Shown one piece after another: positions 4,518 through 33,867 of a stretch of DNA of 36,622 bases; within the stretch, counting starts at the first letter, position 1; each line of letters opens with the position of its first letter. The notes below the pieces were generated by a model. The model saw nothing but the letters and a program-made list of their open reading frames with translations. It ran no database searches and was not told the origin of the DNA. A program made the translations under genes and the position numbers. The DNA comes from a virus (taxonomy: Duplodnaviria; Caudoviricetes), in IMG/VR virus record IMGVR_UViG_3300014885_000002, positions 1 to 36,622 of that record; one strand, written 5' to 3'.

Positions 4518-4734
4518 AATAATAGAAGTTTACCATAACTACGGGGATGGCTATGACTATGACTATGGCTATGGGGGGGGGCATGTTTATGAAAATAGAG
4601 ACCTCTATGGCGATAAAAATGAAGACGGCTCTGGGGATGGAGACGGCTATGGATTTGGTTGTGGCGATGGTCGCGGTTATGGGAGTGACTACAACGATAG
4701 TTTCCCTAAATCACTATGGAACATTCAATTATGA
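4510..4734 (+). CDS. Gly/Asp/Tyr-rich repeat protein 1
   Basis: Degenerate GDGYG repeats; overlaps upstream gene. Confidence 0.65.
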   Translation: MNEIIEVYHNYGDGYDYDYGYGGGHVYENRDLYGDKNEDGSGDGDGYGFGCGDGRGYGSDYNDSFPKSLWNIQL

Positions 4735-5021
4735 ATGATTTAATTATTAAAAACTACTATTGTTATAGCGATCCTAATGGCGATGGCTATGGCGATGGCG
4801 ATGGCTATGGCTATGGCTATGGCGATGGCGATGGCTATGGATTTGGTTGTGGCTATGGCAATGGCTATGGCGATGGCGATGGCTATGGCGATGGCGATGG
4901 CTATGGCTATGGCTATGGCGATGGCGATGGCTATGGCGATGGCTATGGCGATGGCGATGGCTATGGATTTGGTTGTGGCTATGGCTATGGCTATGGCTAT
5001 GGCGATGGCAATCGGATTTAG
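4731..5021 (+). CDS. Gly/Asp/Tyr-rich repeat protein 2
   Basis: ATGA coupling at 4731; pure (GD/GY)n repeat. Confidence 0.7.
   Translation: MNDLIIKNYYCYSDPNGDGYGDGDGYGYGYGDGDGYGFGCGYGNGYGDGDGYGDGDGYGYGYGDGDGYGDGYGDGDGYGFGCGYGYGYGYGDGNRI
4778..5009 (+). repeat. Hexanucleotide tandem repeat (GGCGAT/GGCTAT)n
   Basis: Visible directly; interrupted twice by GGATTTGGTTGT. Confidence 0.95.
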
Positions 5022-5062
5022 GTAATTAATTATAAAATATTTTATCAATAACAGGGGGTTTT

Positions 5063-31267: not shown

Positions 31268-31547
31268 CGTAGTTCCTCAGCATAGAGTAATCCGGAAAAT
31301 TTGCTTCGAATTTTCCCCATGATATTAAACGTAGATCTTTATCTAAAACTAAATAATAAAAAGAAATCCCAGGTTTAATATAAATAGGACACGGCAGTTT
31401 ACCCATAGAATTAAAAATAAGAGGATTTTGATATGGGCATGCAAATTCTTTATCGCTAAATAAGATGGACGTTTCCCTGTTTAATATCTGCAACAGTCCT
31501 CCAAAATTATCTTTACCATCTATAACTAAATCTGCAATACTACTCAT
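31254..31547 (-). CDS. Stand-alone homolog of the N-terminal attachment domain of tail protein 10215-11849
   Basis: Aligned by eye: FSD....PY..P.I....G..P.P.Y....G...YY...NFP. Confidence 0.65.
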   Translation of the reverse strand: MSSIADLVIDGKDNFGGLLQILNRETSILFSDKEFACPYQNPLIFNSMGKLPCPIYIKPGISFYYLVLDKDLRLISWGKFEANFPDYSMLRNYDGIH

Positions 31548-31798
31548 TTTATCCTCAATTTTTCTTCTTTCGATATTTTACGTTTAAGTTCTTTAGATTT
31601 ATGGGCTCTAATTTTTGCAAATTTATTATCTACACCCACTTCCCATTTAGAATCTTTAGCGGACTCTTTCAAGCCCGCTTTAGATTCTGATTTCTCTCTT
31701 TTCTTTGCACCTTTACCTTCAATCTTAGCCAAAGTAGAAAACGTCTTTTCACGCTTTTCCACTTTCTTTAAGTCTCGGAGTTTTTTTGCAGTTTTCAT
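31544..31798 (-). CDS. Lys-rich basic protein
   Basis: 84 aa, strongly K/R/E-rich. Confidence 0.65.
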   Translation of the reverse strand: MKTAKKLRDLKKVEKREKTFSTLAKIEGKGAKKREKSESKAGLKESAKDSKWEVGVDNKFAKIRAHKSKELKRKISKEEKLRIK

Positions 31799-31805
31799 AT
31801 TTATC

Positions 31806-32216
31806 TCAAAAATAAAAACAATTAACCACTACATTTTGTCCTAGCACTTGGTTCAAATTGAATAATCTAATTGAAGTAGGGTAACTAGGCACAATCGCAT
31901 GCGCATTAAACTTTCTAAAATTAACCGGTGTGCTAACGGTTACCGTATAAACTCCATCTGGAGAATCGTTATTTTCAAACTCGTAATTAGCCGCTGATAT
32001 TTGCACTTTAACCGAAACATTATCAAGCGCCCACAGATTGCAAACAACATTCCTTCCTATATTCTTGCCTTGAATGAGTTGGTATGCTTCCATTCCATCA
32101 AAGGGGGACATGACATAATTCCCAGTCGGGATAATACCCTGAAAGTCCTTCCCAGCATAAACACTCGAAGCGGCTAAAACTAAAGCAGCGCCTAATAAAA
32201 CTTTAAACTTCTTCAT
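31806..32216 (-). CDS. Secreted/periplasmic protein with Sec signal peptide
   Basis: MKKFKVLLGAALVLAASSVYA signal; two Cys; beta-rich. Confidence 0.8.
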   Translation of the reverse strand: MKKFKVLLGAALVLAASSVYAGKDFQGIIPTGNYVMSPFDGMEAYQLIQGKNIGRNVVCNLWALDNVSVKVQISAANYEFENNDSPDGVYTVTVSTPVNFRKFNAHAIVPSYPTSIRLFNLNQVLGQNVVVNCFYF

Positions 32217-32436
32217 TTTGATATCTCAGATTAAATTACAACTTGTCCTGCAATATCATCATCCAATACGAACTATCCTGCTTCTCCAAATTCATGCCTA
32301 TTTTTGCTAGCTGCGCTCGTAATAGACAACGAAGGCTCCTCAATTAACGATATTGTAACCCAATCGAAACGCACCCTTAAAGATGAGGGTGAGACTATTC
32401 CCCGTAACCTAGGAGAGGAATTCATAAAAACTAATA

Positions 32437-32616
32437 TGGCGGTCAATAACTGGATTCGAACCAGTGTTACGCATCACACTTTACTATGATAGGCAAACCT
32501 AAATACAATCAGCCCCTAGGGGAAAATATTGCATTTAGTGAGGTCGACCACCGTTGCTAATAGCAACCGCATCTATCACGATTACCTAGGAATCCTCGAA
32601 CTCCCCCATATTGACC
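32437..32616 (-). ncRNA. 180-nt tRNA-like RNA with encoded CCA
   Basis: 5' GGTCAATA pairs with 3' TATTGACC-GCCA; T-arm ACTGG-TTCGAAT-CCAGT; nested internal helices; 6 nt downstream of tRNA-Asn. Confidence 0.7.
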
Positions 32617-32622
32617 AATAAC

Positions 32623-32698
32623 TGGCTCCTCGAAATGGACTCGAACCATTGACCCAGTAGTTAACAGCCACTTGCTCTACCATCTGAGCTATCGAGGA
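32623..32698 (-). tRNA. tRNA-Asn (GTT)
   Basis: 76-nt cloverleaf TCCTCGA-TA-GCTC AGATGGTA GAGC-A-AGTGG CTGTTAA CTACT-GGGTC-AATGG TTCGAGT CCATT-TCGAGGA-GCCA. Confidence 0.96.
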
Positions 32699-32703
32699 TA
32701 ATT

Positions 32704-32859
32704 TCATTTAATTTTCTTAACTTTCCATTCATAAGACTTACAATTAGGGCACGCACTCGGATTTTCCTTTCTAGGTTGCCATCTCCAACCGCACCGAATA
32801 CATTGCGCCATCTCGGCTACAAGCTTTTTATGTATAGTCTCTTTTTTTGAAATTTCCAT
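32704..32859 (-). CDS. 51-aa zinc-ribbon protein
   Basis: CIRCGWRWQPR...P..CPNCKS..W. Confidence 0.75.
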   Translation of the reverse strand: MEISKKETIHKKLVAEMAQCIRCGWRWQPRKENPSACPNCKSYEWKVKKIK

Positions 32860-32885: not shown

Positions 32886-32920
32886 TCATAATAATAATAA
32901 TAATAATAAGATTTGTCAAA
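32886..32920 (-). promoter_or_regulatory. Leftward promoter with (TAT)7 tract, copy 1
   Basis: TTGACA-AATCTTATTATTATTAT-TATTAT; near-identical to 36121-36152. Confidence 0.75.
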
Positions 32921-32979: not shown

Positions 32980-33177
32980 TTGAGTGATATCATTATGCAT
33001 AAACCACAAATAAAAGTCACTAGAAGCGTACAAGAAGCTAGAGAACAAAGCTTTGAGCGTATTATGGTTGATTCTGTAAAAGCGAAACAACGTAACTTTA
33101 ATGTAACTATGCGTGATAAATTCATGCCAGGTGATGAAGTAGATGTAAGTAAACGTCATGAAAGAGGGGAAAAGTAA
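32980..33177 (+). CDS. Hypothetical protein
   Basis: ORF coupled (TAATG) to next gene; start uncertain. Confidence 0.55.
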   Translation: MSDIIMHKPQIKVTRSVQEAREQSFERIMVDSVKAKQRNFNVTMRDKFMPGDEVDVSKRHERGEK

Positions 33178-33401
33178 TGGCTGTTTTAAAAGCTAAAGCC
33201 CGTAATAAACTTAAAAAGTCAACTTTTGGTTTACCAGGCGAACGAAAATATCCTATGCCTGACAAATCCCACGCCGCCAATGCTAAAGCCCGAGCGACTC
33301 AAATGGTCAACAAAGGCAAACTATCTTCAGCATCTAAAGCTAAAATAGATGCTAAAGCAAACCGCATCTTAGGAAACTCTAAAAAAGGCAAAACCAAATG
33401 A
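33177..33401 (+). CDS. Small basic protein (RKYPMPDxxHAxNAxAR, DUF6582-like)
   Basis: GAGGGG RBS; recurring phage motif FGLPGERKYPMPDKSHAANAKARA; family name recalled, not searched. Confidence 0.8.
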   Translation: MAVLKAKARNKLKKSTFGLPGERKYPMPDKSHAANAKARATQMVNKGKLSSASKAKIDAKANRILGNSKKGKTK

Positions 33402-33550
33402 AAAAGAAAGAAATGAAATCAAAAGAAACGAAAGGCAAAATGAAAAAAGACCACATGAAAGAAGAAAAAGCAGAAAACAAGGCGTTAAAGAAAAGTCCCA
33501 AGAAAGCTGTCAAAGAAATAAAGAAAATTCATAAAAAAATGGGATATTAA
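33398..33550 (+). CDS. 50-aa Lys-rich protein
   Basis: ATGA coupling; MKKKEMKSKETKGKMKKDHMKEEK... Confidence 0.65.
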   Translation: MKKKEMKSKETKGKMKKDHMKEEKAENKALKKSPKKAVKEIKKIHKKMGY

Positions 33551-33867
33551 AAACTTGAAGCCGACTTTTGATAAGTCGGCTTTCTTTTTTTATAAATAGT
33601 GGCAGGATTCTTTAATCGTGCTTTCAATTTATTATGACTATCTATTTTTAATTTTTCTTCTTCTCTGGTAGGGCGCGCGAACTGCAGCATCATACGGCAG
33701 TCCATTATACGTGATAAAGCAAGCCGTTTATCTTCCTCTTCTCTTATTTCTAAAGATTCAATCCCTGGAGTTATTTCTATTGATGTATCTGCGCGTAGAG
33801 CCTCTAACATTTCCGCTTTGTCAATATCTATACCTGCTTTACTTCGTAAAAAACTAAAAAAACTCAT
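33547..33867 (-). CDS. Hypothetical protein
   Basis: AGGGGA RBS, ATGA coupling with rusA. Confidence 0.6.
   Translation of the reverse strand: MSFFSFLRSKAGIDIDKAEMLEALRADTSIEITPGIESLEIREEEDKRLALSRIMDCRMMLQFARPTREEEKLKIDSHNKLKARLKNPATIYKKRKPTYQKSASSF
33558..33591 (+). terminator. Intrinsic terminator of the plus-strand island
   Basis: AAGCCGACTT-TTGAT-AAGTCGGCTT followed by a T run, directly after the stop at 33550. Confidence 0.75.

Follow-up and report, generated by a model that had tools for sequence, protein, structure and literature searches.

A 180-nt gene for a tRNA-like RNA was found in a complete phage genome (the window, the whole stretch of 36,622 bases that was analysed, with direct terminal repeats). 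The element is a real, structurally selected and apparently undescribed phage tRNA-like RNA of a known but unexplained kind. The gene, the selection on its fold and its patchy presence as a unit are the demonstrated steps, and the best explanation of its role, with a probability of roughly one in three, is a host-processed, non-decoding tRNA mimic tying up a host defence protein that attacks tRNAs.

The window phage is P22-like. PHROGs matches among the 60 phage proteins scanned include portal, scaffold, coat, head-closure and ejection proteins and terminase, together with holin, endolysin, RecT, SSB, RusA and repressor. The nearest cultured capsids, annotated as P22-type coats, are <30% identical to that of the window. 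No tyrosine integrase was found in 2/2 complete genomes, and a repressor-like gene is present, a temperate lifestyle not being demonstrable. The best-matching sequencing run is from freshwater sediment, possibly the sample of origin. Small lysine-rich proteins are encoded at 33177-33550 (+) and 31544-31798 (-), the 74-aa one of these corresponding to phrog_16160 with 349 relatives in viral contigs, and a 6-nt repeat run at 4716-5048 encodes a low-complexity protein and gave rise to spurious Rfam miRNA matches.

Architecture of the tRNA-like RNA

The element, its parts and its neighbours are listed below; all coordinates given for the element and its parts in the original prediction hold.

32437..32616, minus strand: tRNA-like RNA gene, 180 nt (predicted mature RNA); diverged copy at L122:2639-2818 (G001), 154/180 identical
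32609..32616, minus: acceptor stem 5' strand, 8 nt (G1, G2, U3); 8/8 pairing with 32441-32448
32589..32606, minus: D arm, 4-bp stem and 10-nt loop (A14, G15, GG in the position of G18/G19); stem identical in both copies
32580..32588, minus: 5' strand of a 9-bp helix at the anticodon-stem position; partner strand 32490-32498, in competition with three other pairings
32499..32579, minus: inner domain, 81 nt, in place of the anticodon loop; comprises conserved junctions, the 6-bp hairpin and the 11-bp stem tipped with 3 bp
32553..32567, minus: 6-bp hairpin; one pair-keeping change
32499..32538, minus: 11-bp stem, internal loop, 3-bp tip, 4-nt loop; 3 double and 2 single pair-keeping changes, 0 breaking
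32472..32491, minus: hairpin resembling a variable arm, 7 bp (8 bp with a GNRA cap in G001); 3 single pair-keeping changes
32466..32471, minus: linker, 6 nt, last base C48; invariant in both copies
32449..32465, minus: canonical T arm, 5 bp and 7-nt loop; invariant
32437..32448, minus: acceptor 3' strand, discriminator G73 and encoded CCA
32623-32698, minus: canonical tRNA-Asn(GTT), upstream neighbour; 64.6 bits; not kept in G001
32704..32859, minus: zinc-ribbon protein, 51 aa, first gene of the predicted transcript; present without the RNA in relatives
32891..32919, minus: sigma-70-type promoter match, 11/12 to consensus
33557..33583, either strand: two-way terminator-like hairpin, upstream; consensus match
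31806..32216, minus: 136-aa protein with a signal-peptide-like start, downstream border of the variable slot; no family above cut-off

All eight acceptor pairs are Watson-Crick (the last being A-U in the window and G-C in G001), and G-CCA is encoded in the DNA at 32437-32440 (-). In standard tRNA numbering, as assigned in the present analysis, U8 and G9 precede the D arm, whose loop begins with A14-G15 and finishes with GG plus one base. Together with C48 and the canonical T loop, these bases leave the tRNA elbow intact in sequence, and U8, A14, G15, G18, G19, C48 and the T loop are present and invariant in both copies. The element begins 6 nt past the tRNA-Asn with a perfect 8-bp acceptor, G-CCA and T arm, as predicted, and the 8/5 geometry with G73 of a conserved tRNA-shaped non-coding RNA gene was borne out in both copies. 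The 180-nt element folds with z = -2.64 (2/200 shuffles equally good), and the runs of ARAGORN and of Rfam at E <= 10 returned no call and no known-family match for it. An assembly artefact was ruled out, since L001 contains an identical element and contigs of two other runs, spanning all or part of it, show 0 differences.

Four features of the fold are well supported: the acceptor, the 6-bp hairpin, the tipped 11-bp stem and a further hairpin preceding the T arm. The hairpin at 32553-32567 and the capped stem at 32499-32538 (10 Watson-Crick pairs and one G-U in its 11 bp) were confirmed as described, and the named helices stand; the description had missed the 7-bp hairpin at 32472-32491 just before the T arm, whose pair probabilities in the joint fold are 0.66-1.0. 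The helix 32573-78/32487-92 is present and unchanged in both copies, but it has to compete with alternative pairings of that segment. Segment 119-131 of the RNA has four candidate partners (29-37, 38-49, 68-75 and 139-145), forming with 29-37 the 9-bp helix at the anticodon-stem position (8/9 pairs in the window, 9/9 in G001) and with 38-49 an extended version of the predicted helix. The pairings with 29-37, 38-49 and 68-75 each carry one pair-improving change, and the order of the alternative models by constrained energy is not the same for both copies. Two readings are possible for the hairpin preceding the T arm: its GNRA cap would suit a variable arm, while its 6-nt linker, resembling a short variable loop, would suit a stand-in for the anticodon arm; the junction is five-way in both cases. 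Joint thermodynamic folding also allows pairing between D loop and T loop, which disfavours the T arm in that calculation; this is taken as an alternative fold because both single-sequence minimum-energy folds retain the T arm.

At the canonical place there is no anticodon loop, and only the off-position 6-bp hairpin can be drawn as one. In both copies it can be redrawn as 4 bp with a 7-nt loop bearing Y32, U33 and R37 (Y-U-N-N-N-R), a weak lead on which the decoy for anticodon nucleases envisaged in the original prediction would have to depend, the hairpin being displayed as an anticodon stem-loop. That proposal is the weaker version of a bait and very unlikely: the hairpin lies off the canonical position, pairing of its inner bases can leave a loop of 3 nt, the two copies have different middle bases in the triplet, and the pattern is expected by chance in an estimated ~1 in 16 per hairpin. 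A protein that recognizes the acceptor end, the elbow or the variable arm is the better candidate for the target.

The same 6-nt palindrome occurs within the element at 32585-32590 and 32515-32520 (-), both conserved in G001, and again at 32407-32412; the copies could permit kissing or dimer contacts. The 5' end of the element resembles the variable loop and T arm of tRNA-Asn (32632-32661 vs 32595-32622, -), and a 10-nt stretch from the end of tRNA-Asn is repeated at the element's end, echoes that reflect either partial duplication or chance.

Selection on the fold and turnover of the genomic slot

Scanning of viral contigs for the T loop, 14 bases and then CCA (58/64 parts of the collection covered) returned 119 loci, one of which, L006 (record G001), contains a homolog of 180 nt with conserved gene order around it. 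A metagenome scan yielded 42 stretches, comprising four copies of the element (two per type), three 96-97-nt tRNA-Sec-like genes and others in which the fold is not formed. None of the 120 loci from 17/64 parts of the bacterial and archaeal genomes is like the element, and no place in cultured phages and plasmids covers 80% of the query. All homolog searches combined give two sequence types of the element; more divergent homologs could have escaped, as every DNA pattern required the exact bases of the T loop or D loop.

The G001 copy differs from the window element at 26/180 sites, with no gaps. The 43 pairs named in the original prediction were derived from the window alone and hence provide a fair prior test: 0 are broken in G001, 7 are changed and 4 are changed on both sides, one double change lying in the acceptor and three inside the insert. 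Under random placement of 26 substitutions, P is 1.5e-5 for 0 broken pairs and 2e-4 for >=4 double changes, and the variable region 79-118 (long stem) alone gives P = 1.2e-4 for no break plus three double changes. Slid controls pair 30-45% of cells vs 99%, and a column-shuffle control of the 51-pair model is weaker (33/500, with two sequences only). The unbroken pairs and the double changes indicate that the fold of the 180-nt RNA is under selection. Identity between window and G001 amounts to 86% in the element, 76-78% in the flanking genes and 50% in the capsids. The shell is the most conserved part of the RNA (4 changes in 72 nt), and the insert junctions differ at 2/26 sites vs 13/40 in the long stem region (Fisher P = 0.03).

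This comparison largely refutes a decaying tRNA with a neutral insertion, a reading to which the decayed look of adjoining tRNA-like genes in relatives and the existence of two sequence types could be taken to point. The acceptor is perfect and carries a double change, the insert has three double changes and no breaking ones, and model R1 retrieved no insert-free parent from 78 sources (best other match 35 bits vs 221). The covariation check with a viral-metagenome homolog, foreseen in the original prediction, speaks against a recent neutral insertion, in two sequence types only.

An 18-codon reading frame (AUG-to-UAG) in the insert is open in both copies. A coding insert was rejected, 9/10 changed codons being non-synonymous and no C-terminus being common to the copies. 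The frame also enters a further proposal, in which the RNA modulates ribosome-linked sensing or rescue, acting uncharged on RelA-type sensors off the ribosome or serving as a small tmRNA-like RNA. The intact elbow and CCA would suit such a role, as would the frame itself; it is nonetheless unlikely, given the same codon changes and unshared C-termini, the D stem, and the lack of G3-U70, A73 and any tmRNA assignment by Rfam or ARAGORN. A module of a longer conserved RNA was likewise rejected, since neither flank is kept from one copy to the other and folding of the 137 nt that follow gives z = 0.06 vs shuffles.

The element occupies a slot between the zinc-ribbon gene and the gene of the 136-aa protein, in which the RNA genes differ among related phages. 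The window type has tRNA-Asn and the element, separated by the 6-nt spacer. In G001 the element is preceded by an irregular tRNA, whose anticodon loop measures 11 nt, and followed by a T-armless tRNA-like piece. L126 carries another irregular tRNA and the T-armless piece of G001, and it lacks the element from one mature end to the other, give or take a few spacer bases. The complete genomes G006 and G008, with capsids 69% identical to the window's, have no element, their slots holding a tRNA-Tyr with a broken anticodon stem and no tRNA, respectively. In a sixth relative (a soil-run contig) the flanks are kept around 493 letters that match neither element type at 80% and may hold a diverged copy. 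The element is present in 2/5 readable related types. It is gained or lost as a unit, and neither tRNA-Asn nor the zinc-ribbon gene is an obligate partner. In this the slot resembles an arms-race cassette.

The proposal that the RNA forms a new system with the zinc-ribbon protein and tRNA-Asn did not survive this comparison, because relatives swap the tRNA-Asn, G001 keeping the RNA behind a different, irregular tRNA, and because the zinc-ribbon gene occurs without the RNA in 3/5 related phage types (both readable), its domain being widespread (167 representatives for the L133 form). The -35 hexamer of the strong promoter at the head of the slot also precedes the zinc-ribbon gene in 5/5 related types, and the hairpin at 33557-33583 would separate the unit from the upstream operon. 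An ATT triplet run at 32886-32910 (-) overlaps the promoter -10 box and is kept in G001 and L126. The placement of the element within a predicted polycistron, with the promoter on one side and a protein gene on the other, would suit a processing signal whose tRNA shape recruits RNase P to cut the zinc-ribbon/tRNA transcript and sets the stability of the downstream RNA. Such a function is quite improbable, as the upstream tRNA already supplies a site of this kind, the same genes are kept in relatives without the element, and the insert is under structural selection.

The irregular tRNAs heading the slot, L122:2546-2630 (+) with an 11-nt and L126:2613-2696 (-) with a 14-nt anticodon loop, both have a possible G-1:C73 pair and no complete encoded CCA. 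The T-armless piece, L122:2842-2890 (+) and L126:2470-2600 (-), has a D arm and a short-looped anticodon arm, and in L126 a terminal stem closes it with a G-CCA end (z = -2.2). Zinc-ribbon homologs with a C-terminal tail weakly resembling the RelB antitoxin are L133:100-351 (-), P0036 and P0037. The Pfam E values of the tail are 0.034 in G006 and 0.0057 and 0.078 in relatives, all below the cut-off; zinc ribbon and tail may form an orphan antitoxin-like fusion in the same slot.

A proposed tRNA bait and its rivals

The bait would be produced by transcription from the 32919 promoter, followed by RNase P cleavage at G1 and removal of 3' sequence as far as the encoded CCA, yielding a stable 180-nt RNA. 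RNase P substrates are characterized by a U-rich leader, G at +1, a T loop and RCCA. Both copies of the element have a U-rich leader and G at +1, and the end is RCCA, flanks with which RNase P processing would be consistent. The 8-bp acceptor would weaken EF-Tu binding and the absent anticodon loop would keep the RNA off the ribosome, so that it could accumulate without poisoning translation. In Ser-tRNA-Sec the 8-bp stem makes EF-Tu binding 100-fold weaker (PMC7609411). Against this analogy, the element shares only C50-G64 with the three base pairs by which E. coli tRNA-Sec rejects EF-Tu.

With G73, G1-C72, G2-C71 and the long hairpin, the RNA might be of serine type and perhaps weakly charged, serine identity depending on the variable arm and G73 without involvement of the anticodon (PMC9976931). 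Charging is doubtful: the gap between hairpin and T stem is 6-8 nt, compared with 1-2 nt in tRNA-Ser. In addition, 12-bp branches are favoured by SerRS (PMC7609411). By analogy with tRNA-Sec biochemistry (PMC7609411, PMC9976931), serylation would be possible but inefficient. The serine-type acceptor end might also suit a dedicated aminoacyl donor, a serylated, EF-Tu-shy RNA feeding a non-ribosomal transferase, and non-proteinogenic tRNAs escaping EF-Tu exist (PMC9976931); no transferase was found among the 60 phage proteins scanned against PHROGs, and this role is highly improbable.

The target of the bait would attack tRNAs at the acceptor end, elbow or variable arm, the shell acting as the bait and the insert perhaps adding grip or blocking the enzyme, the least certain step. 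The bait reading is preferred because the shell is the most conserved part, because the slot fills with non-decoding tRNA shapes in fast turnover, and because defences reading the acceptor or variable loop exist. Among these, toxSAS toxins recognize the acceptor stem and act on the CCA end by modifying it (10.1101/2024.07.05.602228), and Septu reads the tRNA variable loop. Against the bait stands the OLD defence, where rescue by phage tRNA required a working anticodon and hence was replacement, not decoy (PMC12445682). A pure bait does not need the conserved 81-nt insert either, whose junctions are conserved like the shell, and the RelB-like tail, which would suit a bait, is below the cut-off and in a phage without the element.

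The conserved insert gives weight to a rival in which the RNA is a natural tRNA scaffold, the shell serving processing and stability and the insert being a cargo for some protein or RNA partner outside tRNA defence. The layout equals that of the engineered scaffold, with the anticodon stem-loop as insertion site (PMC3753655), the insert junctions change less than the long stem region, eight other viral RNAs combine the same 13-bp arm and G-CCA with unrelated interiors, and the four possible partners of segment 119-131 could make a switch. A scaffold would have no need of the longer acceptor, neither phage genome offers a complementary target above chance, and the slot neighbours are non-decoding tRNA shapes without a large insert; the rival is possible, at odds well short of even.

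If the bait reading is true, a non-decoding RNA would represent a different counter-defence principle, the phage tRNA counter-measures in the literature compared here being decoding-competent tRNAs. The element is short and clonable, and a natural variant with compensating changes makes shell and insert separable for testing.

Comparison with known RNA classes

The 180-nt RNA stands outside the canonical tRNA, tRNA-Sec, allo-tRNA, tmRNA and Y RNA classes. It shares the full set of elbow bases with canonical tRNA (RF00005), which has a 7/5 acceptor-T branch and, after the D arm, a 5-bp anticodon stem with a 7-nt loop, whereas both copies of the element have an 8/5 branch and an 81-nt domain at that place. 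A shorter 78-nt tRNA within the element was rejected, the relaxed ARAGORN call being confined to the window type.

Like tRNA-Sec (RF01852), which has a 13-bp 8/5 branch with G73 in its definition (PMC7609411), the element combines this branch and G73 with a long variable-arm-like hairpin. It lacks a UCA (or sense) anticodon in a 7-nt loop, carries the 81-nt insert, and has a D stem of 4-5 bp with a 9-10 nt loop in place of the long D stem and 4-nt loop of tRNA-Sec; the RF01852 covariance model gave no match to the element at E <= 10. An extended acceptor, G73 and a long arm are also features of allo-tRNAs and of the irregular 'E-loop' and G-1 tRNAs, which were found in phages and soils, some being charged or present without a translation role (Mukai et al., PMC5389517) and some adjoining toxin-antitoxin genes. 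Allo-tRNAs have a 12-bp branch (8/4 or 9/3) with a shortened T stem and keep the anticodon (PMC5389517), unlike the element with its 13-bp (8/5) branch, 5-bp T stem and replaced anticodon loop.

As in tmRNA (RF00023), tRNA-like ends close a larger inner domain through a helix at the anticodon-stem position. The element differs in having a U3-A70 equivalent and G73 instead of the G3-U70/A73 of alanine identity, in its D stem, in being half the size and in lacking a conserved tag frame. No tmRNA was found in the window by Rfam or ARAGORN, and the original prediction was right to set this class aside. Introns are recognized by a group I ribozyme core, or by two 3-nt bulges flanking a 4-bp helix at the anticodon, and by insert-size rules. 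An intron-split tRNA was rejected, the 81-nt insert having no Rfam intron match and the closing helix being continuous.

Phage antisense RNAs of the C4/CI type are processed by RNase P. An RNA of this kind was rejected for the element on the basis of ungapped Watson-Crick complementarity, with no target above chance in its own genome, and of the lack of an Rfam match. The complementarity search found no antisense target above shuffled controls in either phage genome, except the neighbouring T arm in G001; the best complementary match in the window is 10 nt, against a mean null maximum of 11.7. The covariance model of the bacterial Y RNA (YrlA, RF02553) did not match the element. No account of the element or of an 8/5 long-insert class was found in the literature searched, most subscription papers lying outside it. 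The comparison literature includes PMC13096335, and six supplementary files of PMC10690425 gave 0 matches, so the RNA could be catalogued in that paper's three remaining files.

The 13-bp branch is shared more widely. Of the 95 distinct 3' ends yielded by the viral scan, 15 can form an 8-bp acceptor with upstream sequence (1 in the downstream control), and 10/95 give RNAs of 99-180 nt, namely the two element types and eight others. These eight unrelated RNAs (99-145 nt) all have the 13-bp arm and G-CCA; four keep U8 and C48, seven have no ARAGORN call, and seven have no Rfam match over their length. Model R1 scores seven of the other long viral RNAs at 23-34 bits (L021 and L054 aside) vs 221 for true copies; what they have in common is the shell and not the interior. 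With a narrower pattern, bacterial and archaeal genomes (17/64 parts) gave 3/84 distinct ends of such length and 0 with U8 and C48, a sample not strictly comparable with the viral one. The combination of an 8-bp acceptor, a T arm and R-CCA is also found in the long viral RNAs L041:401-499 (-), L119:301-445 (-), L040:401-517 (-), L053:401-515 (-), L054 (128 nt), L110:184-326 (+), L004:401-520 (-), L021 (116 nt), L212:639-753 (+) and L219:521-634 (+). L041 and L119 have the same D arm and anticodon domains of unequal size; L041 comes after a gene of the phrog_16160 family, also present in the window, and L040 before a capsid-like gene.

The 13-bp/G-CCA descriptor picks up viral RNAs overlooked by ARAGORN and Rfam. 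It is tentatively proposed, as a possibility well below even chances, that phages use a recurring class of natural tRNA scaffolds whose swapped-in domains inhibit host defence proteins as RNA. The 13-bp acceptor-T arm, G-CCA and elbow would secure host processing and keep the RNA off EF-Tu, freely evolving domains would stand in for the anticodon arm, and the 180-nt RNA would be the largest member among the 10/95 viral ends, with an interior that is possibly switchable. The engineered tRNA scaffold likewise retains acceptor, D and T arms and replaces the anticodon stem-loop with a foreign structured RNA (PMC3753655), the element differing in being natural and in having an 8-bp acceptor and an extra hairpin.

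The CCA-ended RNAs of T4, to which the original prediction compared the element, proved the right comparison in cluster position and 3' layout, though not in homology. T4 RNA C (species 1; NC_000866 70908-71046) is likewise a small non-coding RNA encoded among phage tRNA genes; its T arm is canonical and directly follows a long hairpin, and a large domain lies further upstream. It is 139 nt as annotated, its predicted fold has weak terminal pairing and no D arm, and the T4 genome has no full encoded CCA there, in contrast to the perfect 8-bp acceptor, D arm and encoded G-CCA of the element. Model R1 found no match in the T4 region L220 at E <= 1 to indicate homology with RNA C or RNA D, the best local match between the element and RNA C being 17 nt around the T loop. 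The gene context of the element fits a CCA-ended RNA cut from a phage tRNA transcript, as are RNA C and RNA D, whose role is given as unknown in PMC3014915 and PMC9697503. Their functions are still listed as unknown while tRNA-directed defences are being discovered quickly, and the proposed scaffold class would, if true, provide a testable role for RNAs of the T4 RNA C type.
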